64,000 nt of DNA from Escherichia phage A5-4. Below the pieces are notes generated by a model, which saw nothing but the letters and a program-made list of their open reading frames with translations, had not been told where the DNA came from and ran no database searches. The stretch lies in sequence record OP744025; one strand, 5' to 3'. Below, piece after piece: positions 1,339 to 58,673 of the stretch; position 1 is the first letter of the stretch, and each line of letters starts with the position of its first letter. Position numbers and translations under genes: made by a program.

Positions 1339-1366
1339 TTGATTTGCATTTTATTTTCATTATACT
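1339..1366 (+). promoter_or_regulatory. sigma70-like promoter for HD-domain gene
   Basis: TTGATT, 16-nt spacer, TATACT; in divergent intergenic region. Confidence 0.55.
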
Positions 1367-1397: not shown

Positions 1398-1961
1398 ATG
1401 AGTCAAGATAAAGAGTTAGCCATTGCGATATCCGTAGCTGCTTCTGCCCATGTTGACCAAGTAGATAAAGGGGGGAATATCTATATTCTTCATCCTTTGC
1501 AGGTGATGCAAACATTGCAGCAAAAGGGAAGGGAAGATTTAATGGCAGCAGGAGTTTTGCATGATGTGATTGAAGATACTGAAATCACTATGGAACACCT
1601 CTTTAAAAAGGGGATTTCAGAAAGAACCTTAGTGATTGTCGATGCAGTGACAAAGAAACGTAAGCAATCTTCATCTGATTACCTAGAGGGGATTTTAGAG
1701 AGTGAGGGTGCTTGTCATGTTAAGCTTGCGGATCTTAAACACAACTTAGATATTCTGCGAACTTGTAGCACCACAGAAAAAGACTTGCAACGGGTCAGGA
1801 AGTATGTAACAATGCACTTGTTGATTACGGAGATGGTTGATTGGTATGAAAGTATCGGAAGGTATCTCGATTATTGTGATTCTTTTGCCTATTCTAGCTA
1901 TCTCGACGAACGTAAAGAATTTGTTCAGAAACTTATTAAAAAATGGAAGGAGTTTAAATGA
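1398..1961 (+). CDS. HD-domain phosphohydrolase, RelA/SpoT-type (small alarmone hydrolase-like)
   Basis: HPLQVM, LHDVIEDT and KLADLKHNL motifs typical of (p)ppGpp-hydrolase HD domains; promoter and GGAG RBS upstream. Confidence 0.75.
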   Translation: MSQDKELAIAISVAASAHVDQVDKGGNIYILHPLQVMQTLQQKGREDLMAAGVLHDVIEDTEITMEHLFKKGISERTLVIVDAVTKKRKQSSSDYLEGILESEGACHVKLADLKHNLDILRTCSTTEKDLQRVRKYVTMHLLITEMVDWYESIGRYLDYCDSFAYSSYLDERKEFVQKLIKKWKEFK

Positions 1962-2491
1962 AAAAGGTATTGAGTATTGAGCCGTTCACAACAACATACT
2001 TTGACGATTTGGAACGTCATGGTGATTATGGGGTACAAGACGCTGATGGTTGGAAAGAATTCCCTGAAGAAACAAAAGGTGACATTACAAAGCTCGGTTG
2101 TAAGATCAATGGATCTGAACCAAAAGGTGTTTACACCATGTTTTCTTTCCTTGAAGCTATGAACCCAATGTACAAGGGAGATCGGCAATTTGGTTTTTCT
2201 TTTGCATCATTCCTTACTTGTAGCTGTGGTCATGGGGGTTGTGCAGGCTATCATGATAATGTGGTTATTCGACGTAAAAAGAATACCGTGATGGTCATGG
2301 GTAAAAAGGAAGATGGTTATGACGAAGGTGTTGTATTGACAGGTGAATCTGTTGTATACTTCGATAAAAAGCAGTGGGACGGTGTTCTAGAACACTACCT
2401 TAAACTCTTCAAAGAAAATCCTGATGGTGTTTTTGAAGATGCGGGTTTTATGTTTACTGGTCGTTGGGGGACTAAAAATTTTTCAAAATAA
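1958..2491 (+). CDS. hypothetical protein
   Basis: 177 aa; ATGA start/stop overlap with HD gene. Confidence 0.55.
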   Translation: MKKVLSIEPFTTTYFDDLERHGDYGVQDADGWKEFPEETKGDITKLGCKINGSEPKGVYTMFSFLEAMNPMYKGDRQFGFSFASFLTCSCGHGGCAGYHDNVVIRRKKNTVMVMGKKEDGYDEGVVLTGESVVYFDKKQWDGVLEHYLKLFKENPDGVFEDAGFMFTGRWGTKNFSK

Positions 2492-2503
2492 TTTAAAAAC
2501 TTG

Positions 2504-2531
2504 TTGACTTAAGAAATAGAAAAGATATACT
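2504..2531 (+). promoter_or_regulatory. sigma70-like promoter upstream of AAA+ ATPase gene
   Basis: TTGACT, 16-nt spacer, TATACT. Confidence 0.5.
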
Positions 2532-2561
2532 TATCACATCAAAAACAAGAGGAGATATAAA

Positions 2562-3791
2562 ATGCAAGCAACTTATCAACGTATGGACCAAACCATGTTC
2601 AAAAAACGTATCAGTGTTCGTGATATGGAATCACTGATTCGCCTAGGGGCTTCCATCGGAAAGACCGTATTCTTTTTTGGTGGTGCTGGTCTTGGTAAGT
2701 CTGAAAAAGTAAAACAGATCGCTGATTCCATGTTCCCACATCGTGTAGGTAATAACCTTTGTGATGTTCGTCTGTCGGATAAAGAGCCACAAGATATCGC
2801 AGGTATTCCGATTCCGATCTCTTATCCAGATCCGAAAACTGGTAAAGAAGTCACTCGTACCGTATATGCAGTTCCAAACTTTTGGCCTACTGATCCTGAT
2901 TGGGAAGGTATCGTGTTCTTGGATGAACTGCCAAATGCACCATTGGGCACTCAGCACTCTGCATATCAGGTTATTCTTGATCACGTTGCAGGTGAGCATA
3001 AGTTCCCGAAAGGTACTGTGTTTGTAGGTGCAGGTAACCGTGATACTGATGGAGCAGGGACTACTTCTATGCCTGGCCCATTGGTTAACCGTATGATCAT
3101 TGCAGAAGTTGATTATAATCTGGATGTGTGGATCGAAGACTATGCGATTCCGTTCCGTCTGCACCCGAACATTATTGGTTTCTTGAAGCAGTTTCCAGAG
3201 CATTTCTATACTGGTGACGTAGAAAACCGAAGTACTCCGGTTTATTCATCTCCTCGTCAATGGAAAACAGCATCTGACATTCTGTACAAGTATGATGCGG
3301 GTGAGATTAATGAATTTATCGCAGAGGTTGCTCTTGCAGGTACAGTTGGTGAAGGCCTGGAAGTACAGATCCTTGCTTATCATTTACGTGCTAAAGAACT
3401 TCCTCCGATTGAAGATATCTTTAGTGGTGCAGTTGAAGAACATAAACTTGATCGCAGTAAGAACGACCTTGTTTACGTCCTGGCACAAACTGGCCTTCGT
3501 CGCATGGAAGATGAGGTTATGGATAATGACATGACGGATGATAAGTTCCTTGAACGTGCAGGTAACTTCCTTACGTTCATGTACAATAACTATTATGCAA
3601 ACAACAAGGATACAATGATTGCTTTGATCTTGGGCGTGTTCCGTGGTCCAAACGATAAGCCATCTATCCTGACTGTTAACCCGAAACGTCAGAAAATGAT
3701 TCCGCTCATGCGTAAAAGTTGCCCGACTGTTTCTGCCGCAGTTATGGAATACATGACTCGCTATGGTCAACTGATTAAAGAATTCGAATAA
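2562..3791 (+). CDS. MoxR-type AAA+ ATPase (CobS-like)
   Basis: Walker A GGAGLGKS, Walker B VFLDELPNA; 409 aa; paired with VWA protein downstream. Confidence 0.8.
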   Translation: MQATYQRMDQTMFKKRISVRDMESLIRLGASIGKTVFFFGGAGLGKSEKVKQIADSMFPHRVGNNLCDVRLSDKEPQDIAGIPIPISYPDPKTGKEVTRTVYAVPNFWPTDPDWEGIVFLDELPNAPLGTQHSAYQVILDHVAGEHKFPKGTVFVGAGNRDTDGAGTTSMPGPLVNRMIIAEVDYNLDVWIEDYAIPFRLHPNIIGFLKQFPEHFYTGDVENRSTPVYSSPRQWKTASDILYKYDAGEINEFIAEVALAGTVGEGLEVQILAYHLRAKELPPIEDIFSGAVEEHKLDRSKNDLVYVLAQTGLRRMEDEVMDNDMTDDKFLERAGNFLTFMYNNYYANNKDTMIALILGVFRGPNDKPSILTVNPKRQKMIPLMRKSCPTVSAAVMEYMTRYGQLIKEFE

Positions 3792-3795
3792 TCTC

Positions 3796-3824
3796 TTGAC
3801 AACGAAAAACAGTTAACTTAATAT
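3796..3824 (+). promoter_or_regulatory. sigma70-like promoter upstream of HNH gene
   Basis: TTGACA, 17-nt spacer, TAATAT. Confidence 0.55.
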
Positions 3825-3827
3825 AAG

Positions 3828-3854
3828 GGCATCTCGAAAGAGGTGTCCTTTTTT
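3828..3854 (+). terminator. terminator-like hairpin with T6 between promoter and HNH start (possible attenuator)
   Basis: GGGCATCTC-GAAA-GAGGTGTCC stem-loop followed by TTTTTT. Confidence 0.45.
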
Positions 3855-3866
3855 AATTTGGAGAAA

Positions 3867-4361
3867 ATGATGGATTTCATAAAAGAAGGATTTTCTTTCG
3901 ACCCCCTTGCAAAGTTTCTACTAAGGAGAAATGGAAGAGAAGTAGGGAATGTAGTAAAGAATCATAAAGGTTATGATAAAGACTATGTACGTGTAACATG
4001 GTCAAGGGAAAGGAAAAGAAAATCTGCGTATGCTCACAGGATCATTTGGGAATTGCATTATGGCAAGATACCTGATGGTTATTGTATAGACCACATAAAT
4101 GGAGATGGTTTGGATAACAGGATTGAAAACTTAAGATTGGCAACTAAGAGTCAGAATGGTCAAAACAGGAAAAACAACAAGAATAAAAAGGATGGTCTTC
4201 CTAAAGGTGTAGTTATGAATCATGGAAAATACACAGGAAGGGTCTATGTAAATGGAAAAAGGTTACAGAAAATTAGTTCCGACCTTGACGAAATAGTCAA
4301 TTGGTTGGAGAATAAACGTAAAGAAAATCACGGTGTGTTCATGAACAATGGAGAACAATAA
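3867..4361 (+). CDS. HNH homing endonuclease
   Basis: H-x-IDHINGDGLDNRIENLRLAT-x-N HNH signature; sits between the AAA+ and VWA genes; track ORF starts at GTG 3843 inside a hairpin, ATG 3867 with GGAG RBS preferred. Confidence 0.8.
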   Translation: MMDFIKEGFSFDPLAKFLLRRNGREVGNVVKNHKGYDKDYVRVTWSRERKRKSAYAHRIIWELHYGKIPDGYCIDHINGDGLDNRIENLRLATKSQNGQNRKNNKNKKDGLPKGVVMNHGKYTGRVYVNGKRLQKISSDLDEIVNWLENKRKENHGVFMNNGEQ

Positions 4362-5899
4362 TGTCAAAAATTAGTCAAGAAGAAAAAGATATGATCGAAA
4401 TGCAAGTCTTCGAAGCTGAACGTATTATTGAAGCTGCAAGTCTTCAACTTATGCGCTTCAAAGCGTTCTACGGGGTGATGCTTTCGTCTATGCCTGTTAA
4501 AAAGGCGACGGAATGGTGTAGTACAATGGCGACTGATGGACGTAACCTGTATTACCATCCAGAGTTCGTTGCAGGTATGACAGAAGAACGTAAAAAATTG
4601 GTACTTGATCGACTTTCCAAATCTGAGAAAGATCCTAAAAAGCTGAAAGAGGGTATTGAGTTTATCAATGTCTTCTATCGTCGAAAGACTGCTCGTGAGC
4701 TTGCTCTTATTCTTGAGCATGAATGTGATCATGTGATCTCTGATCATGCTTCTCGTGGCAAGGGGTTTAATCACGAACTTTATAATATTGCTGCGGATCA
4801 TCGTATCAATACAACGGCGGTTCTTATTCACCAAAAGGGGGATGAGTTAGGTAAGGCATGGTTCCCTGCCGGAGAAAGAACAGTATTCGATAAGAATGCA
4901 GAATTTGGATTTATGGCCTGGTCTTACTGTGATTTCCGATTCAAAGATATGTATACTGAGCAGATCTATGAAATCCTGAATAAAGAGCAAGATGATAAAG
5001 AAAAATCCAAAGGGAAAGGTTCTGGTTCTGGAAGTGAAGAGGGTGATGGTGAAGAAGGTGGTCAAGGTCGTAAAGGTGTTGATCAGCACATGGATCAGAA
5101 TGGTGATCCAGAAGATTCAGAAGGTGATGGTATCGAAGATGCACTAGGAATCGACCGTAAAGCGAAGCCTAAGCAAACAGCAGAGGAACGCCAGTATAAC
5201 GATGGGGTTATGCGTCGAGCCATTGAGAATGCCGTACAGGCAGCAGGAAGCGGTGCACCGGAAGATGCTCGTCGTTTTGTAGAAGCGGCGGGTAAACCAA
5301 AGATTAATTATCTTCGTTTGTTGCGTAAAACTATTGAACGTCTGTTCAAAGATGATGTATCATATCGTCGTTTGTCACGCCGTAGTCACTCGTTAACTCG
5401 GACTCTTCGTGGCTCGGGTTACTTATCTGGACGACAGACGATTGGTTTACCCTCAAAGAATAAACAGAAGACTATTCGTGCAGGTGTCTTCTTCGACGTA
5501 TCTGGATCATTTAACGATGATCTGTTAAGACCAACAATGCGTGAGATTCGTGGATTGTGTAATCTTTACGATGAGTTTGAAGTTACAATGGCTTGCTGGT
5601 CAACAAAGGTTGGTAACATTGAAACGTATACGAAGAAGAATGTGAATGAGATTGCTAACTACAAGATCAAGACCACATTTGGTACGGATGTTTCTTGTGT
5701 GTTCGAGGCATTAGATGAAATGAAAGACCCTATGGATCAGATCATCATCTACACTGACGGTTACTTTGCTGATGTATCCCAAAAGAAAGATTGGGCCAAA
5801 AAGTATGGTAAGAATGTTCTTTGGATCATCCTGGGTCGTGGGTCTTCGTTCACCCCGCCTTTTGGCAAGGCAATTGATTTTGACAAGTATCTTAAATAA
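4361..5899 (+). CDS. VWA-domain protein with HExxH motif and acidic linker (CobT-like)
   Basis: ILEHECDH zinc-binding-like motif, Gly/Glu/Asp-rich central stretch, C-terminal MIDAS-like FFDVSGSF; TAATG stop/start overlap with HNH gene. Confidence 0.75.
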   Translation: MSKISQEEKDMIEMQVFEAERIIEAASLQLMRFKAFYGVMLSSMPVKKATEWCSTMATDGRNLYYHPEFVAGMTEERKKLVLDRLSKSEKDPKKLKEGIEFINVFYRRKTARELALILEHECDHVISDHASRGKGFNHELYNIAADHRINTTAVLIHQKGDELGKAWFPAGERTVFDKNAEFGFMAWSYCDFRFKDMYTEQIYEILNKEQDDKEKSKGKGSGSGSEEGDGEEGGQGRKGVDQHMDQNGDPEDSEGDGIEDALGIDRKAKPKQTAEERQYNDGVMRRAIENAVQAAGSGAPEDARRFVEAAGKPKINYLRLLRKTIERLFKDDVSYRRLSRRSHSLTRTLRGSGYLSGRQTIGLPSKNKQKTIRAGVFFDVSGSFNDDLLRPTMREIRGLCNLYDEFEVTMACWSTKVGNIETYTKKNVNEIANYKIKTTFGTDVSCVFEALDEMKDPMDQIIIYTDGYFADVSQKKDWAKKYGKNVLWIILGRGSSFTPPFGKAIDFDKYLK

Positions 5900-5908
5900 G
5901 GAGGATCT

Positions 5909-6280
5909 TTGAGCGAGTATACTTACAAGTTGTCAGTCGGTAGGCGTGGAGTGGTTATGACTATCAACATGATTAATGAAAGTGCGGAGGCTGTGAAATG
6001 GTGGGCCTCCACCTTTAACGGGAAAGGTTTTACTTTATCTCGTCATAAGGTTGGATCAGGAAAGCCAATAGATCTTGTCAAGGAGGACACTTTCTTGTAT
6101 CCTGATCGTATTGCTGATGAAGATATTGATTTCCTATCTGCTACGGTTGGTAGTTTGTTGGATGAGGAGCCAGACATTGTAAGGTTACTCTCTTTACTTA
6201 CAGCAATGTGGTCAGCAGGTCATGATGAGGAAAGTATGCATACGATGGTAAGGAATACGTTGAGACGTTGGTCTAAGTAA
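5909..6280 (+). CDS. hypothetical protein
   Basis: 123 aa; TTG start 4 nt after AAGGAGGA; start uncertain. Confidence 0.45.
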   Translation: MSEYTYKLSVGRRGVVMTINMINESAEAVKWWASTFNGKGFTLSRHKVGSGKPIDLVKEDTFLYPDRIADEDIDFLSATVGSLLDEEPDIVRLLSLLTAMWSAGHDEESMHTMVRNTLRRWSK

Positions 6281-51732: not shown

Positions 51733-52479
51733 TTAATTACCTCCTTTAAGATCCTTTTCACGAGCCTTGACAACTGCCTTACAGAATGGACTACGAACGA
51801 TTTCTTCACTAGTCGCTTCAACATAATCGGCAAAGTCGTAAAGTTCATGACGATCAATGAATTCGATTGCCCATTCTAATCCAGTTTCACGATTACGCAT
51901 ATCGTTCTGTGTGATATCGCCTAAGCAGAACAGCTTAGAACTTTCACCTTTACGAGTCATGATCGTGTAAGCCGTATCTTCATCTGTGTTCTGAAACTCA
52001 TCGACAATAACAACCGCATTATCGAAAGAACGCCCACGGATATATTCCAGAGGAACAAATTCAATGTTACCACAACCCAACTGAGTTTCAAAGAAACCGT
52101 GACCGTAGCGTTGCTGAATAACCTGAATAAGTGCCTGAAGGAAAGGCTCGAATTTCTCACGGATAGTCCCAGGTAGTAACCCGAGGCTGTTCCCCATTCC
52201 CAATGTTGGTCGAGTAAGGACGATCTTTTCAATCTTACCTTGCTTCAGCCAATCAATAACGGTACTCATAATGACAAATGTCTTACCTGTACCCGCCGGA
52301 GCGTTAACGAAAACAACTTCCTTCTCGTTAACCAGAGATAACAATTCCTTTTGGAATCGGTTCTTTGGAGTAATAGGTTTTTTCAACTCTTCATAGGCTT
52401 TAGGTGTTACCTGACGGCCTTTTGAACGCTTCTCTTCACGACGATCCTGACGAGATTTACGATTAGTATGACGTTGCAT
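51733..52479 (-). CDS. phoH: PhoH-like ATPase
   Basis: P-loop APAGTGKTF, 248 aa. Confidence 0.8.
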   Translation of the reverse strand: MQRHTNRKSRQDRREEKRSKGRQVTPKAYEELKKPITPKNRFQKELLSLVNEKEVVFVNAPAGTGKTFVIMSTVIDWLKQGKIEKIVLTRPTLGMGNSLGLLPGTIREKFEPFLQALIQVIQQRYGHGFFETQLGCGNIEFVPLEYIRGRSFDNAVVIVDEFQNTDEDTAYTIMTRKGESSKLFCLGDITQNDMRNRETGLEWAIEFIDRHELYDFADYVEATSEEIVRSPFCKAVVKAREKDLKGGN

Positions 52480-52494
52480 AGAGTACCTCGCTTC

Positions 52495-52878
52495 TTAAGG
52501 GTAGAGTTTATGAGGGAGTTGGAAATGAGGACCATCTTTAAATGAAGTCCAATCACCGCCCCACTCAATCGGGATGTTTAATTCTTTTGCTGCATCCTTA
52601 ACAGCTTCTGCCATCGGGTAATAATATTTCCAGTCCCAAGTAACCGATCCGTTAACCAAAGGCCACAAATCTACAGCATGTCCGGTCAGATGACGACTGT
52701 TCATCGTCTTACTCTTACCTTCTGCAACATACTTACGTTGGGTTTCTATTGTACGTAGACCTTCACCAACAGTAAAGTCAATCGTACTCTTTTTGATTGC
52801 CAGTTTCACAACTTCAACCAAGTCGGGATGAACGCCCTTAAGACGTTCAATACTCCGTTTACCTAATACAAATCCCAT
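52495..52878 (-). CDS. M15-family peptidase (L-alanyl-D-glutamate peptidase-like, probable endolysin)
   Basis: HLTGHAVDL and GGDW motifs of VanY/M15 zinc peptidases; 127 aa. Confidence 0.7.
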   Translation of the reverse strand: MGFVLGKRSIERLKGVHPDLVEVVKLAIKKSTIDFTVGEGLRTIETQRKYVAEGKSKTMNSRHLTGHAVDLWPLVNGSVTWDWKYYYPMAEAVKDAAKELNIPIEWGGDWTSFKDGPHFQLPHKLYP

Positions 52879-52886
52879 TAAGTCTC

Positions 52887-53297
52887 CTAGTGAGTAACTT
52901 CAGTTTTTACATACCCCAAGATCAAATCATCTTGGATCTCTTTCATCGCCACAGACATTTTCAACTGAACTTCAGCGATAGCTTCTGAATATTCAATTTC
53001 GTCTACAAAGCGTTGAAGATGTTCAGTGGATAACGAATCCATATTTTCCACGATCGCATTCTGCATTACCTTTTCGTAATTTTCAGAAGTCATCGCTTCA
53101 ACGATCTTCTGTTGATTTCGGACCTTAATGATATCTTCTTCTGTCTTATCTTCAATACCTTTCAGGAAGTCCAGCGTCATCACTGCCACTTCAAGGTTTG
53201 CGTCAATTGCCTTACCAACAACGTACTTTGCAATTTTATGAAGCAGACGCTCACGATCAGTCAGTTCTTTTTCAATTTTATCAACGGTATTAGTCAT
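52887..53297 (-). CDS. hypothetical protein
   Basis: ORF track. Confidence 0.5.
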   Translation of the reverse strand: MTNTVDKIEKELTDRERLLHKIAKYVVGKAIDANLEVAVMTLDFLKGIEDKTEEDIIKVRNQQKIVEAMTSENYEKVMQNAIVENMDSLSTEHLQRFVDEIEYSEAIAEVQLKMSVAMKEIQDDLILGYVKTEVTH

Positions 53298-53590
53298 TAC
53301 AGATCTCCCAGGTCATCGTTATTGAAGTCAAGTTCTACTTTGCTCGGCAAATTCTTTGCTACCAGTTCAGTGTAGCCTCCAACGTACTCGCTGTCAATAA
53401 AAATCTGAGGAACTGTACGTGGAACATAACCAACAGCATCGCTTACCTTTTTAACCATCTCTTGCAGATTGCCAGAGTTTGCACCCACGTCAATATACTC
53501 ATACTCATAACCTTTCTGATCAAGGAGGGTTTTTGCATTGTCACAGAATGGGCAGTTTACTTTACCATAAATCACATTACTCATTATCAA
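53297..53590 (-). CDS. glutaredoxin-like protein (NrdH/Grx family)
   Basis: CPFC active-site motif near N-terminus; located in nrd cluster. Confidence 0.75.
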   Translation of the reverse strand: MIMSNVIYGKVNCPFCDNAKTLLDQKGYEYEYIDVGANSGNLQEMVKKVSDAVGYVPRTVPQIFIDSEYVGGYTELVAKNLPSKVELDFNNDDLGDL

Positions 53591-53621
53591 TCTCCTTTAT
53601 CCAGAAAACAAAACTATTTAA

Positions 53622-53885
53622 TCACACTTCTTTGAACGTTGCAAGCACTGTTGATTCAATTTCGTAATAATTTTCACGAACTTTGATATCTTCATTCAAT
53701 GCCCAAGGTACACCAAGGTCAGTGCTTACATATTGGAGATCATCTGATCCATCATAAACAGAATTCTGTTCAAACACAAAACCTTCCACTGCAAAAGTAC
53801 AAATAAGTTTTTTCACTTTTAGAATCTCCAGGTTAAGGGCCTTTCGGCCCAGCTTATTAAAGTTCGAAATCGAAGTCAGATGCAC
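53622..53885 (-). CDS. hypothetical protein
   Basis: ORF track. Confidence 0.5.
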
Positions 53886-54954
53886 TTACTGAAGAGTCAA
53901 CCTGACCAGACAGATATTGACCATTTTCTAGTTCCTGTGGAGTCACCTGGACGTTTTTAGTATTCAGGTGGCTATTGATCCAAGGGATCGGGTTCTTCAG
54001 TGGCTTACCGATGAAACTATCTAAACCAACTGCTCGCATACGTTGGTCAGCCATATAATCTACGTATTGCCACAGGATCTCTTTATTCAGTCCAACCATC
54101 GAACCATCTTTGAACAGGTATTCTGCCCAATCACGTTCTTGCTGTCGTGCCTGTAAGAACAACTCACGGGCTTCATCTTTACAATCTTCTGCGACTCGTG
54201 CAATAAGGTCACCTTCACGACCACTCTGCATTTCGTTCAGAATATACTGAGTACCCGACAAATGCAATGCTTCATCACGAGCGATCAGTTCGATAATGTT
54301 GGTGTTGCCAGTCATGATACTACGCTCACCAAATGCAAACGAACATGCAAAACTCACATAGAAGCGGATTGCTTCCAAAGCATTAATACTGTGCATACAC
54401 AGATACAGTGCTCGTGCATGTGCATAACGATCGACTGGCAAGTTCAAAGCGTAACGACTGTTCAACTGGAATAAATCGTCATACAGCTTCGTAACTGCAT
54501 CTGCACGTTCCAGAATTTCTGGAGTTTTCATGATCTCATCAAGAATTGCAGAAGGATCACTAAATACATTTCGAATAATGTGTGTATATGAACGGCTGTG
54601 GATTGTTTCACTGAAACCCCAAGTCTCAATCCAAGTTTCCAAAGCTGGGTCAGAAACAATTGGAAGTAATACTGCATTCGGGCCACGCCCTTGAACTGAA
54701 TCAAGCAATGTTTGATACTTAAGGTTACTAATGAAAATATGTTTTTCATGATCAGGTAATCCCATAAAGTCAATTCGGTCACGGGTCACATCGATTTCTT
54801 CCGGTCGCCAGAAGAATGCCAACTGCTTTTCTGTCAGCTTTTCAAATTTGTTGTGTTTTTGCTTGTCGTAACGAGAAACGTTAACAGACTCACCAAAGAA
54901 CATCGGTTGTTCCATGAAATCAAACTGGTTTTTATTAAAAGTCGTGTAGCTCAC
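53857..54954 (-). CDS. nrdB: ribonucleotide reductase class Ia beta subunit
   Basis: [31 protein letters not shown] closely resemble E. coli NrdB. Confidence 0.9.
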
Positions 54955-55009
54955 TTATTATCTCCTCTTCGTTAATCTGAAAACCATTATACCTGAACTT
55001 ACCAAGAAA

Positions 55010-55351
55010 TCAATAGTTATTTCTTAAAATTTCAATTCCGTATCGCTTAAAAACTTCCTTCGCTGCCATAAACTTCTGTGCTGCACTTGGATTTGAAGTA
55101 TGAACAAACAGAACAGCAGGATACAGGATCGGCTTCCCAAATACAAGCTTTTCTTCTAACATTTCTAAACAACGGTAGCCTTCTTTTGAATCTTCACCAA
55201 GGTCATTGTCGAAGTGCCATTCTGTTACCCGACGATACATTTTATTGGGGTCATCAAGGAACTCGATAAACTGGTCAGAATTTTTAAACCAGATGGCATC
55301 ATCATGCCCGTAATCTTTTGGATCTCTCAAATCATCAAGCCAAATCTTCAT
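55010..55351 (-). CDS. hypothetical protein (inserted between nrdA and nrdB)
   Basis: own promoter at 55381-55408 and AGGAGG RBS. Confidence 0.55.
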   Translation of the reverse strand: MKIWLDDLRDPKDYGHDDAIWFKNSDQFIEFLDDPNKMYRRVTEWHFDNDLGEDSKEGYRCLEMLEEKLVFGKPILYPAVLFVHTSNPSAAQKFMAAKEVFKRYGIEILRNNY

Positions 55352-55380
55352 CTTTTCCTCCTGTCTCGTTTATGTGGTTT

Positions 55381-55408
55381 ATTATACGGATTACCTTACC
55401 GAAGTCAA
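55381..55408 (-). promoter_or_regulatory. sigma70-like promoter inside nrdA-nrdB insert
   Basis: minus strand TTGACT, 16 nt, TATAAT, then AGGAGG RBS and ATG at 55351. Confidence 0.55.
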
Positions 55409-55413
55409 TAAAA

Positions 55414-55433
55414 AACCGCCCCGAAGGGCGGTT
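55414..55433 (-). terminator. terminator hairpin AACCGCCCCGAAGGGCGGTT (copy 1)
   Basis: perfect 8-bp stem, CGAA loop, T-run on minus strand; identical copies at 55639 and 61459. Confidence 0.65.
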
Positions 55434-55437
55434 AATT

Positions 55438-55626
55438 TTAATTGTACTTGTTGAGAATGTTAAACATATCTTTTGCAATATATTTATTGTCTCGACAACC
55501 AGCAAGGTTGTTACGAAGTGCAGCCATATAGATCTCTGTGCCGCAACCTGGGTAGGATGTGCCGAATCTTTTTGCCTGTCGTTTAAATGTCCAACGATCA
55601 ATAAAGAACCACGAGATAAATTTCAT
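55438..55626 (-). CDS. hypothetical small protein (inserted between nrdA and nrdB)
   Basis: 62 aa; flanked by identical hairpins AACCGCCCCGAAGGGCGGTT; GAGGAGG RBS. Confidence 0.5.
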   Translation of the reverse strand: MKFISWFFIDRWTFKRQAKRFGTSYPGCGTEIYMAALRNNLAGCRDNKYIAKDMFNILNKYN

Positions 55627-55638
55627 ATTCCTCCTCAG

Positions 55639-55658
55639 AACCGCCCCGAAGGGCGGTT
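55639..55658 (-). promoter_or_regulatory. hairpin AACCGCCCCGAAGGGCGGTT (copy 2) in 5' leader of small ORF
   Basis: identical hairpin directly upstream of GAGGAGG RBS; no T-run on minus strand. Confidence 0.5.
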
Positions 55659-55666
55659 ATTTATTG

Positions 55667-57925
55667 TCACAGTTTACAAGCACCTGATTCGCAGCCTTCA
55701 TCCTCTTCATCTTCACCATCACGAGTTTCTTGATAGTAAACAGTCTTCAGGCCAATCTTGTAAGCATACATCAGGTCACGCAGTACAATCTTAATCGGCA
55801 GTTTGCCACCTGGATAATCCCAAGGTTTGTAGAAGGTATTGGTCGAGATCGACTGGTCAATAAACTTCTGGATGATAGCCATCAGGTTAAGATAAGCTGT
55901 CGGTCCGTTCATATCCCATTTGTACTCGTATACCACACCTTCCTCACCAACACCAGGAACCAGCGTCGGAAGCATACCCGCAGGTGACTTCTTAAACGTC
56001 ACTGGACCACGAGGAGGTTCAATGCCGTTGGTAGAGTTAGTGATCTGGCTCGATGTTTCACAAGGCATCATTGTGGACAACGTTGAGTTACGTAATCCGT
56101 GCAATGCGATATCCAGACGCAAACTTTCCCAATCTTGTTGCAATTCTGCGGTATGCAACTGATCAACTTCTTTCTTGTAGCGATCGATAGGTAAGATGCC
56201 ACGAGAATAAGATGTTTGATCGTACCACTCACAAGCACCACGCTCTTTCGCCAACTGAACAGAAGCTTTCAGCAGGTAGAACTGGAATGCTTCCGCGAGT
56301 TTATGAACTTCATTGGCAGCTTCCGGCGAACTATATTTAAGTCCACGTTTAGCCAAGTAATACGCCAAGTTAGTCCAGCCAATACCTAAAGTACGACGCA
56401 GTAACGTTTTCTCTGCTGCAAGAACAGGGTAGTTCTGATAATCAAGCAGGTTATCAAGAGCACGTACCGTGATCATAACAGGTTCTTCTAAATCTTCAAG
56501 CTTCTCGATCTTTCCGAGGTTGATTGCTGATAAAGTACACAGTGCAACTTCACCAGAATCTTTCGGGTCCTTAATGTTATTGATCGGAGCCGTAGGTAAT
56601 GCAATTTCCATACACAGGTTAGACTGCTTAATCGGAGCCACTTCAGGAAGGAACGGACTGTTGCTATTGCAATGGTCAACGTTCTGAATATAAATACGAC
56701 CCGTCTGGCTACGTTCTTGAGCTAAACGAGTGAAAGCATCAGTCGCTTCAAGCTCTTTGCGAGGAATGGAAGGATCTGCTTCCAATTTCTCATACAGTTC
56801 TGCAAATGCTTCTTGATCCGAGAAGAAGTATTTATACAGATCACCGTTTGCTACGTTTGGATGGAAGAAACTGATCTTGCCACCTTTCTGTAAGCGAGTA
56901 TAGAAGAACTTGTTGATCTGAACACCATAATCAACATGTCGTGCACGGGTGCTTTCAGTACCACGGTTGTTCTTCATTACGATCAGGTTTTCAAAGTCCC
57001 AGTGCCAAATCGGGTAGAAGTAGTTAGCTGAAGCTTTACGCAGACCACCTTGAGATGCCCAACCTAAAGATTCTTGATACATTCGAACAATGCCAACCGT
57101 ACCTGCATGTTTAACTTCCCCGCCGCGAATAGGAGCGTCCTGTCCACGAATAGCACCAAAGTTCAAACCGATACCTGCTCGCTGTGCTGCATACTTACCT
57201 TGTGCTTCAACTGCTGCAAAGATCTGGTTAATATCATCACCGGACTCAATCAGTACACAAGAACTGAATTGTCGAGTCGGGGTTCGTACCCCACCCATAA
57301 TCGGAGTAGGCAGAGAAACCTTCATGGTAGAAACCATATTGTACAGATCAATCACTTTTTGTAAACGCTTCTTAGGATCTTCTTTACTCATCAAACACAT
57401 TGCGATCAGCATCAGTGCTGTCTGAGGGGATTCAAAGATTTCACCTGTTACACGATCCTTGACCAAATACTTATCTTCATACTGACGCATAGCTGCGTAA
57501 GTGTAATCAAAATCACGGTCATGATCGATAACTGTATCTAAGAATTCAATCTCTTCCTTCGTATAATCTGAAATCAGATGTTCATCGTATTTACCGCGAG
57601 CCACAGTCATAAGAATGTGAGCATACAGTGGACGAGGTTCAAAACCACCATAAGCCTGCTTACGCAGTTTAAACAGAAGCAGACGTGCTGCTGGATACTG
57701 ATAGTTTGGACTTTCTACACTAATTAGGTCCGCTGCGGACTTGATCAGGGTATCGTGGATCGCGTCTGTTTCTACACCATCATACATCTGAATCTGAGAT
57801 TTCATCAGGATATCAGAAGGACTTACATCATTAACCCCTTCACAAGACCAAACTACAACACGGTTTATTTTCTCAGCTTCGAATTTCTCTACAGAACCAT
57901 TACGCTTACGAACAGTAATACCCAA
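55667..57925 (-). CDS. nrdA: ribonucleotide reductase class Ia alpha subunit
   Basis: 752 aa; N-terminal ATP-cone-like region, C-terminal CESGACKL tail; strong resemblance to E. coli NrdA. Confidence 0.9.
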   Translation of the reverse strand: MGITVRKRNGSVEKFEAEKINRVVVWSCEGVNDVSPSDILMKSQIQMYDGVETDAIHDTLIKSAADLISVESPNYQYPAARLLLFKLRKQAYGGFEPRPLYAHILMTVARGKYDEHLISDYTKEEIEFLDTVIDHDRDFDYTYAAMRQYEDKYLVKDRVTGEIFESPQTALMLIAMCLMSKEDPKKRLQKVIDLYNMVSTMKVSLPTPIMGGVRTPTRQFSSCVLIESGDDINQIFAAVEAQGKYAAQRAGIGLNFGAIRGQDAPIRGGEVKHAGTVGIVRMYQESLGWASQGGLRKASANYFYPIWHWDFENLIVMKNNRGTESTRARHVDYGVQINKFFYTRLQKGGKISFFHPNVANGDLYKYFFSDQEAFAELYEKLEADPSIPRKELEATDAFTRLAQERSQTGRIYIQNVDHCNSNSPFLPEVAPIKQSNLCMEIALPTAPINNIKDPKDSGEVALCTLSAINLGKIEKLEDLEEPVMITVRALDNLLDYQNYPVLAAEKTLLRRTLGIGWTNLAYYLAKRGLKYSSPEAANEVHKLAEAFQFYLLKASVQLAKERGACEWYDQTSYSRGILPIDRYKKEVDQLHTAELQQDWESLRLDIALHGLRNSTLSTMMPCETSSQITNSTNGIEPPRGPVTFKKSPAGMLPTLVPGVGEEGVVYEYKWDMNGPTAYLNLMAIIQKFIDQSISTNTFYKPWDYPGGKLPIKIVLRDLMYAYKIGLKTVYYQETRDGEDEEDEGCESGACKL

Positions 57926-57936
57926 TTTATTTCTCC

Positions 57937-58185
57937 TTATTTAGTTTCAGTTTTAGTTGCAGACTTGTTGATCAGGGTATCATATTTATCGACATTTTCA
58001 AGTGTCGGTTCACCTAATCGAACAGTTAATCCAGAATATTGATCGTGGTAAGTGTCGTCATAACCAAACGAGTCATCAACCAGATCATTAAACTGCAACC
58101 AACCTAAGTATTCATGCTTACTTGCAAAACCACGCTGGAACCATTTAGTTTGTTCAACCGGAACTGTTAATTTAGATTTACCCAT
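57937..58185 (-). CDS. hypothetical protein
   Basis: ORF track. Confidence 0.5.
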   Translation of the reverse strand: MGKSKLTVPVEQTKWFQRGFASKHEYLGWLQFNDLVDDSFGYDDTYHDQYSGLTVRLGEPTLENVDKYDTLINKSATKTETK

Positions 58186-58199
58186 AATATCTCTCCTTA

Positions 58200-58673
58200 T
58201 TATTTAATCAGTGTTTCAGAAAACTCAGGAAGATCCATAACGATTGTTTCGGAACGATCTTCTTTTCGTGTGTACTTACGGGTATTCACCTTTTCAACAA
58301 CCGGAATATCAAAATCTAAAGAGTTAACAAAAGCTGTTGCTTTTGAACTTCTAACATCCAGAATGTCCATCTTTTCATAGATATCTACCAGCGGGAATTC
58401 TGATTTGTCACGTAGACGTCCAGAAAACACTGTTGTTTCACGGCAAAGGTACGGCTTGTCGATACAACGCACATTCACTCGGTTAATTCGGTCAATCTGG
58501 CAAGGTTTATATTCACCAGTCTCTTCATTCAGAATTGAAACTTGGAAACCGATCAGGTGAAGGACTTTACGAAGAGTTTTGTCATCCTTCGGGTCGAAGT
58601 TCATGATTTTTGCACATTCCAAAATGAAATCCAGAGTTACTGCACCGTATTTAACTTCTTTCTTAAAACCCAT
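58200..58673 (-). CDS. hypothetical protein
   Basis: start moved to ATG 58673 with GAGGAG RBS. Confidence 0.5.
   Translation of the reverse strand: MGFKKEVKYGAVTLDFILECAKIMNFDPKDDKTLRKVLHLIGFQVSILNEETGEYKPCQIDRINRVNVRCIDKPYLCRETTVFSGRLRDKSEFPLVDIYEKMDILDVRSSKATAFVNSLDFDIPVVEKVNTRKYTRKEDRSETIVMDLPEFSETLIK

Follow-up and report, generated by a model that had tools for sequence, protein, structure and literature searches.

An HNH homing endonuclease gene inserted between a MoxR-class ATPase gene and its VWA partner in a Vequintavirinae coliphage, with host genes of probable counter-defence function

A short region of Escherichia phage A5-4 (sequence record OP744025) carries genes for an HD-domain hydrolase, a MoxR-class AAA+ ATPase, an HNH endonuclease and a 512-aa VWA protein, with the HNH gene lying between those of the ATPase and the VWA protein. 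This arrangement raises the question of how the HNH gene came to separate the two partners and what the genes around it do for the phage. The window analysed is 64,000 nucleotides (64 kb) long and comes from a Vequintavirinae coliphage; the region itself spans 4.5 kb (positions 1398-5899) and has 99.1% identity to Escherichia phage A7_1. Phages A73, LTH01, UPEC06 and W70 have 94-97% nucleotide identity to the region and align to it as two pieces, with ~0.5 kb absent. We read the locus as two layers, a homing insertion of the HNH gene and a set of host genes with counter-defence functions, and consider this reading probable. The first layer rests on allele comparison and the second is inferred. 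The genes that host the insertion most likely form a counter-defence set and not a metabolic or chelatase unit.

The HNH gene was acquired by insertion. Junction alignment showed that A73, UPEC06, LTH01 and W70 lack exactly 489 bp at this place, and the comparison with insert-free relatives, which an earlier note on this DNA had proposed as a check, confirmed that the insertion is clean. The empty allele reads GGAGAAAATGA/AATGGC at the insertion point (marked here by a slash), and the wider junction reads ...TTTGGAGAAAATGA/AATGGCAAAAC..., with the ATG of the VWA gene 8 nt past a GGAG. The insertion is positioned between the Shine-Dalgarno (SD) sequence of the VWA gene and its ATG. The occupied allele has this GGAG (3860-3863) in front of the HNH start codon, an ATG at 3867 or 3870. 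An alternative upstream start, GTG at 3843, appears in the list of open reading frames (ORFs), and ATG is favoured by the annotation of A7_1 and by the junction analysis. A second GGAG lies in the last HNH codons, AAT GGA GAA CAA TAA TG (N-G-E-Q), 7 nt before the VWA ATG. The TAATG stop/start overlap described in the earlier note is real, with the HNH stop at 4359-4361 and the VWA ATG at 4361-4363. The same internal-SD design occurs in phage CB7 (GGAGGTTGAAATG; …AACGGAGGTTGAAATG) and in the contig L095 (…GAGGGTTAATAAATG). Relatives keep the internal SD and a tight spacing rather than the 1-nt overlap itself. The HNH gene would be translated from the SD that formerly served the VWA gene, and the new GGAG in its own end would serve the VWA gene in turn. 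Because the 3' end of the HNH gene supplies a new SD and an overlapping stop codon, the VWA gene stays translatable, and the junction sequence indicates that the HNH gene was inserted without silencing it.

The earlier note had also proposed that the insertion preserved coupling between the partners. This holds for the translatability of the VWA gene, but translational coupling between the ATPase and VWA genes never existed, as the two are separated by an 80-nt spacer in HNH-free alleles. The spacer contains a sigma70-like promoter and an intrinsic-terminator-like hairpin that folds at -16.5 kcal/mol (z -5.9). A TTGACA and a -10-like hexamer are found at the same place in CR8, P7_Pc and L095, and CB7 has a weaker -10. 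Equivalent hairpins with other stem sequences are present in CR8, CB7 and L095, and the layout is kept in P7_Pc too (window 3796-3854; L009:5756-5812; L006:4943-4990; L008:6247-6300; L095:2425-2485). The presence of a promoter and a terminator hairpin in an 80-nt spacer implies that the ATPase and VWA genes are not translationally coupled, and from these elements they may be separate transcription units. The HNH gene is downstream of both the promoter and the hairpin. A transcript from the abutting promoter would start inside the 5' arm of the stem, and the full terminator would be formed only by read-through from the ATPase gene. This promoter-abutting-hairpin layout is kept across genera despite differing stem sequences.

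The HNH protein matches HNH_3 over residues 63-106 of the GTG-start ORF, with the motif IDHINGDGLDNRIENL and an intact catalytic motif. Its C-terminus is probably an AP2-like DNA-binding region, judging from its sequence; no Pfam match was obtained there. The gene is already annotated as a homing endonuclease in A7_1, the only genome returned by an exact-sequence lookup. When viral contigs were scanned with the HNH protein as the sole query, one partial match was obtained, and no HNH paralogues were found in the 64-kb window. The same insertion site, directly upstream of the VWA ATG, is used in the Pectobacterium phages CB7, phiTE and PcCB7V, in the metagenome scaffold L094 and in L095, and the HNH relatives at this site in CB7, phiTE, PcCB7V and L095 have 63-68% amino acid identity. 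Of 26 distinct close phages, seven are occupied (four by an intact HNH gene, two by a decayed copy and one by a different HNH gene) and the spacer of the other 19 is empty. The decayed copies are in Pectobacterium phages DU_PP_I (L092:377-782) and DU_PP_IV, in which a 107-bp deletion inside the HNH relative shifts its frame and the annotation splits it into two small ORFs. Pectobacterium phage P7_Pc has a second, only remotely related HNH_3 gene (L008:5752-6249; 39% identical in the core) inserted ~70 nt 5' of the HNH site, where it overlaps the stop codon of the ATPase gene, which shows that the ATPase-VWA spacer is a repeated target of homing endonuclease genes. The ratio of nonsynonymous to synonymous substitution (dN/dS) between the HNH gene and the L094 copy is 0.08, which indicates that intact copies are under purifying selection.

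The insertion is linked to a diverged tract in the gene that follows it. The window and A7_1, both HNH-carrying, have 23 substitutions in common that none of the four HNH-free genomes has, and all of them are at positions 4-105 of the VWA gene, where they alter eight residues of the protein. No HNH-linked substitutions occur at positions 106-300 of the VWA gene, and the 304 nt upstream contain only 1-5 differing sites. The third HNH-carrying genome, L094, combines an ATPase allele of the A73 type with a diverged HD region. Its HNH gene has 93-97% nucleotide identity, and its 105-nt tract is 97% identical to that of the window and 74% identical to that of A73. The occurrence of both on a different background means that the HNH gene and the tract move jointly between backgrounds. 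In the Certrevirus comparison, background divergence was so high (70-90%) that a linked tract could not be told apart.

These features would follow from homing. In a mixed infection, the HNH enzyme would cut HNH-free genomes near the insertion site, and repair from an HNH-carrying genome would copy in both the HNH gene and the ~105 nt of the VWA gene next to it. The many substitutions in the tract probably also shield the carrier from self-cleavage. By comparison of these alleles, the HNH gene is a textbook free-standing homing endonuclease gene in a standard cycle of invasion, spread and decay. Free-standing HNH homing endonucleases are known from large lytic phages, such as MobE of T4, which lies between nrdA and nrdB. 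The locus resembles such systems in having a small HNH ORF in the spacer of conserved partners, a sporadic distribution, a co-converted flank and preserved expression of the host genes, but differs in that the endonuclease is of the HNH_3 kind and sits exactly between SD and ATG, bringing a replacement SD with it. The insertion is routine phage biology and the locus belongs to known kinds. Its value lies in the clean natural allele series that it offers (empty, occupied, decayed and with a second HNH gene), which could be used to map the homing site and the co-conversion tract.

Two other accounts of the HNH gene have to be weighed against homing. The gene could have been at this site ancestrally and been lost by deletion in the insert-free relatives, and the proteins of the same-site relatives do diverge by 32-37%, roughly as far as the flanking genes between the same lineages, which suggests long residence. 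We nevertheless regard ancestry followed by loss as doubtful, since the empty alleles are scar-free and have a functional SD-ATG layout common to HNH-free Certrevirus phages, and since the HNH gene and its 105-nt tract occur on at least two ATPase/HD backgrounds, requiring lateral transfer by recombination. The distinction is a matter of degree, as ancestral loss and homing both belong to the normal cycle of a homing endonuclease. The gene could instead have been domesticated, for example to control VWA expression or as a nuclease needed by the module, and not be purely selfish; VWA translation now depends on its 3' end and purifying selection on it is strong. An actively homing element is also expected to be under purifying selection, however, and the gene is missing from the 19 close phages that keep the pair with an empty spacer, and has decayed in DU_PP_I and DU_PP_IV while the VWA gene is intact, and P7_Pc has a different HNH gene at a neighbouring site, which together make domestication very improbable. 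The homing insertion is retained as the account of the HNH gene.

The ATPase that precedes the insertion is of the MoxR class, as the earlier note had held. Across 30 homologues there is no variation in Walker A (G40-S47), in Walker B (D121-E122) or in the Walker, sensor and arginine residues G40, G43, G45, K46, S47, D121, E122, N159, R177 and R232. A profile built from the 30 sequences matches midasin AAA domains at 1.7e-15, and the AlphaFold2 (AF2) model (pLDDT 88) has NorQ (1.9e-8) and CbbQ2 as its top Foldseek matches. The protein gave no Pfam match at E <= 0.01, with the AAA_3 and AAA_5 models included, and no NCBIfam match at E <= 0.1, and none of 79 ATPase homologues has a precomputed Pfam domain. 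The ATPase of SSBI34 (MZ520832) is mislabelled as 'ribosomal protein uS19'.

The partner was correctly described as a VWA protein with an HExxH motif and an acidic linker. Pfam identifies DUF2201_N (3.5e-25) and DUF2201 (8e-8), and the HExxH (H120-E-C-D-H124) and the complete MIDAS (D379xSGS383) are both invariant. Within the N-terminal domain, H120, E121, H124 and H129 are invariant. The linker is rich in G, S, D and E, is disordered and has low confidence in the model. The best structural matches of the VWA domain include NorD from the NorQ-NorD complex and midasin MIDAS domains. A profile search around the HExxH gave weak M48/BepA matches only (E 0.06), and a literature search on DUF2201 returned incidental mentions only. 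Annotation errors for this protein are spreading: it is called an 'HNH endonuclease' in PHROGs (phrog_1314) and in the RefSeq records of CR3, CR8, CR9, PBES 02 and phiTE.

The description of the two proteins as a CobS/CobT-like pair was not upheld. There is no CobT family match, the VWA protein is composed of DUF2201_N and DUF2201, and the ATPase model is nearest to NorQ and CbbQ. A cobaltochelatase was rejected on the lack of any CobT match in Pfam or NCBIfam, the lack of a CobN-sized ORF at the locus and best structural matches to NorQ/NorD. The pair resembles NorQ/NorD and CbbQ/CbbO in these structural matches, in adjacent genes and in a VWA domain with a MIDAS and a flexible linker. It differs in that the phage VWA protein has an N-terminal HExxH domain in place of a metal-insertion role, and the phage ATPase has a long extra C-terminal helical domain, which Pfam AAA models do not detect. 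In NorQ/NorD, the ATPase is thought to pull on the flexible linker of the VWA protein. By analogy, the DUF2201 protein would be to the MoxR ATPase what NorD is to NorQ: the ATPase would engage its VWA/MIDAS domain and linker, and this action would deliver, position or activate the HExxH peptidase on a host immune protein.

The locus genes, on homology, are not chance ORFs, as ATPase homologues occur in 323 phage records, and 31 records have both the ATPase and the VWA protein at E <= 1e-150. Both genes are present in 65 of 80 distant viral contigs, with a gap of <200 nt in 47 of the 65, and the pairing is ancient. The ATPase query matches jumbo phages including RaK2, 121Q and GAP32. Neighbours in the 80 distant loci include nuclease, QueE-like and FolE-like genes (by sequence reading) and give no decisive functional clue. 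In one distant sub-lineage, a 218-253-aa ORF that starts MATVRMS.../MKTVRLS.../MSTVRMS... lies between the ATPase and VWA genes and could be a third component there (L061:1939-2598, L073:2490-3146, L076:6969-7625, L082:5045-5806). Another locus (L015:1284-2291) has a 335-aa ORF in this position with K/R-[YF]-G-[VT]-[DE]-N repeats and a nuclease-like C-terminal region; it may be a homing endonuclease of another kind (by sequence reading).

An experimental lead for the pair comes from Escherichia phage MaxBurger (Bas54). The statement that phage CobS/CobT-like pairs have no established function is now partly outdated, as a 2025 preprint reports a homologue of the ATPase as an anti-defence gene (HIDEN-SEQ; 10.1101/2025.11.20.689424). 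In that work, the MoxR ATPase bas54_0063 was required to overcome DS-28, a predicted two-gene defence system of E. coli CFE311, and its knockout was DS-28-sensitive. We confirmed by locus tag that bas54_0063 is homologous to the ATPase encoded in the window (36.7% identity, 98% coverage, E 5e-85), and found that bas54_0055, annotated as a 'putative metallopeptidase', is homologous over its full length to the VWA protein encoded there (37% identity, E 3e-116). Supplementary tables of the same preprint list both genes as non-essential on K-12. In the transposon comparison of K-12 with CFE311, bas54_0063 had a log2 fold change of -7.23 (adjusted P value 0) and bas54_0055 one of -2.20 (P value 0.0009, adjusted P value 0.009), with insertions depleted on the DS-28 strain (10.1101/2025.11.20.689424). 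Homologues that are non-essential on K-12 yet depleted on a defence strain favour counter-defence over an assembly role. The Bas54 pair is of the same subfamily and domain content as that of the window, but its genes are eight apart on opposite strands, with no HNH gene, and the anti-DS-28 role is shown for Bas54 only. This split, within the genus Vequintavirus, shows that adjacency is not required for the pair. The Bas54 pair genes (L096, L097; record positions 52121-58418) adjoin an anti-sigma factor gene and rIIA/rIIB. A pair found in hundreds of large phages, with a previously speculative role only, now has a first experimental tie to counter-defence, and the window holds an adjacent, compact form of it that makes a tractable system for how a phage AAA+/VWA/peptidase machine defeats immunity.

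The HD protein at the start of the unit has Aph1 of Bacteroides caccae (7SMG) as its best solved relative (E 6e-22), followed by Rel, SpoT and Mesh1 chains at 5e-12 to 5e-7, and NCBIfam spoT_relA matches only its HD part (2.7e-15). Aph1 has the signature D24, R96, D116, R119, K133 and Y134, and mutagenesis showed that D24 and R119 set specificity for (p)ppApp (PMC10083569). HMMER alignment places D23, G98, D118, R121, K135 and Y136 at these positions in the HD protein, so that five of the six are kept, both specificity residues included. The replaced residue, R96, is the sole member of the signature away from the active site. The D, D, R and Y of the signature are invariant across phage HD homologues, and the catalytic H55-D56 and E59-D60 are intact. 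The guanine-binding residues R43, R44 and S45 of TtRel correspond to D23, K24 and G25, much as they do to D24, K25 and A26 in Aph1. From these residues, hydrolysis of (p)ppApp is a more likely activity of the HD protein than hydrolysis of ppGpp, and by analogy the protein might also act on 3'-pyrophosphorylated tRNA, a modification that some small alarmone hydrolases (SAHs) can reverse. Toxic alarmone synthetases (toxSAS) are neutralised by SAHs from phages, such as PaSpo of Salmonella phage SSU5, and from other sources, and Aph1 serves as the immunity protein for a MuF-fused (p)ppApp synthetase of a prophage (PMC10083569). The HD protein resembles Aph1 and PaSpo in its single HD domain, Aph signature residues and phage-borne gene, and differs from Aph1 in an extra ~45-aa C-terminus and in having G in place of R96. 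Such an Aph1-like enzyme would hydrolyse (p)ppApp or 3'-pyrophosphorylated tRNA from defences of the toxic alarmone-synthetase type, and this re-reading shifts the host pathway of interest. The HD protein of UPEC06 (MW250786) is mislabelled as a 'GTP pyrophosphokinase'.

The earlier note had joined the HD gene to the MoxR/VWA pair. This link is lineage-specific only, as an HD gene is near the pair in two of the 80 distant viral loci, and a functional HD-pair link outside this subfamily is unsupported. In CB7 (CB7_104, L006:1520-2224) and phiTE (phiTE_055), the HD protein has 413 aa and an HNH/AP2-like module (phrog_953, 8.8e-74) fused in frame at its N-terminus, which makes a third invasion of this gene cluster by an endonuclease. 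A tblastn search of the window with the N-terminal domain from the 413-aa HD protein of CB7 gave no match; no search aimed at a synthetase was made.

Both host-gene assignments have competing explanations with some evidence behind them. Iyer et al. 2021 (PMC7824862) saw the MoxR and metallopeptidase-vWA pair in group 2.2 jumbo phages and proposed, from sequence analysis, a role in virion assembly or processing, and the window pair matches it in its two genes and in the order of zincin and vWA domain (zincin first) within one fused protein. A pairing of an assembly chaperone with a maturation protease for virions would also suit genes kept across hundreds of large myoviruses. That proposal rests on analogy with p618/p892 of Acidianus two-tailed virus, and the phage studied here is a ~140-kb non-jumbo myovirus, unlike the group 2.2 phages. 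Both Bas54 homologues tolerate transposons on K-12 and are depleted on the defence-carrying isolate, the genes of the window lie among small early-type ORFs with sigma70-like promoters and outside any structural module, and neighbours in distant contigs are nuclease and nucleotide-metabolism genes. An assembly role is unlikely on this evidence. We give a similarly low standing to the proposal of the earlier note that the HD protein could be a (p)ppGpp hydrolase of the SpoT kind and could blunt the stringent response of the host. A RelA/SpoT hydrolase domain (HD_4) with an intact catalytic site is present, and modest ppGpp activity was reported for two of 12 Aph homologues assayed, but TtRel R43 and R44 are replaced as in Aph1, R121 matches Aph1 R119, Aph1 is by far the best solved relative, and Aph1 itself gained ppGpp activity only as the D24R/R119A double mutant.

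Counter-defence is preferred for both. Put together in its most specific form, the MoxR and zincin-VWA proteins would be an ATP-driven counter-defence protease that recognises an immune protein of the host (DS-28 or a relative) and inactivates it. In the same island, the Aph1-like hydrolase would be a second counter-defence enzyme, and the HNH gene, besides spreading itself, would shuttle alternative N-terminal alleles of the anti-defence protein between co-infecting phages. We offer this full scheme tentatively, as a possibility less probable than the two-layer reading. Several points weigh against the two-layer reading. The anti-defence evidence comes from a preprint and a homologue of 37% identity, whose pair is eight genes apart on opposite strands; the effect of bas54_0055 is modest, and knockout validation is limited to bas54_0063. 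The zincin fold of the N-terminal domain is putative, and a fold search with the protein ranked only VWA matches. The HD protein has G at the sixth signature position and a ~45-aa C-terminal extra absent from Aph1. For the HNH layer, the cleavage site is a prediction, and the HNH relatives, at 63-68% identity, have diverged to much the same extent as the flanking genes, so that long vertical residence with repeated recombinational loss is indistinguishable from repeated homing.

Coordinates of the features are collected in Table 1. The total of sigma70-like sites in the region was not above the shuffled expectation, and the site at 1339..1366 is therefore only a candidate.

Table 1. Features of the A5-4 locus, with positions in the 64-kb window
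Feature	Positions	Strand	Evidence
Sigma70-like promoter candidate, TTGATT-16-TATACT, upstream of HD gene	1339..1366	+	Consensus scan, 9/12 matches
HD-domain small alarmone hydrolase (predicted), Aph1-like, 187 aa	1398..1961	+	Pfam HD_4 E 8.6e-8, above family cutoff; best PDB 7smg_A
Conserved ORF, 177 aa, function unassigned	1958..2491	+	phrog_8242 at 9e-57; ATGA overlap with HD stop codon
Sigma70-like promoter candidate, TTGACT-16-TATACT, upstream of ATPase gene	2504..2531	+	Consensus scan, 10/12 matches
MoxR-class AAA+ ATPase, 409 aa, ~130-aa helical C-terminal extension	2562..3791	+	Profile, AF2 model, Foldseek
Sigma70-like promoter, TTGACA-17-TAATAT, ATPase-VWA spacer	3796..3824	+	Consensus scan, 10/12 matches
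Intrinsic-terminator-like hairpin, 11 bp, GAAA loop, T-run, abutting -10 hexamer	3825..3854	+	Terminator scan
GGAG Shine-Dalgarno: VWA SD in HNH-free alleles, HNH SD in occupied allele	3860..3863	+	Junction alignment, sequence reading
Free-standing HNH (HNH_3) gene, 164 aa	3867..4361 (ATG 3867 or 3870)	+	HNH_3 3.6e-23; phrog_99 1.4e-44
489-bp insertion relative to A73, UPEC06, LTH01, W70	3871..4359	+	Junction alignment
Replacement GGAG Shine-Dalgarno in last HNH codons, 7 nt before VWA ATG	4350..4353	+	Sequence reading
DUF2201 protein, 512 aa: HExxH putative zincin, acidic low-complexity linker, VWA+MIDAS	4361..5899	+	Pfam
HNH-linked diverged tract (co-conversion or immunity tract), first 105 nt of VWA gene	4364..4465	+	Allele comparison
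Conserved ORF, 123 aa, function unassigned, directly 3' of VWA gene	5909..6280	+	phrog_12385 at 3.6e-27

Every ORF claimed in the earlier note is present in the ORF list at its coordinates. Its gene list was accurate for the genes that it named, but two conserved ORFs were omitted, 1958-2491 (phrog_8242) and 5909-6280 (phrog_12385). All six plus-strand ORFs are assigned to phage families by PHROGs. No tRNA genes were found in the 64-kb window, PADLOC defence-system models gave nothing meaningful for any of five proteins, and neither of the two conserved ORFs had a Pfam, NCBIfam, PADLOC or PDB match. ORFs of matching size lie at the same positions in Certrevirus phages (531 nt for 1958-2491 and 378-381 nt for 5909-6280), a correspondence by size and position alone.

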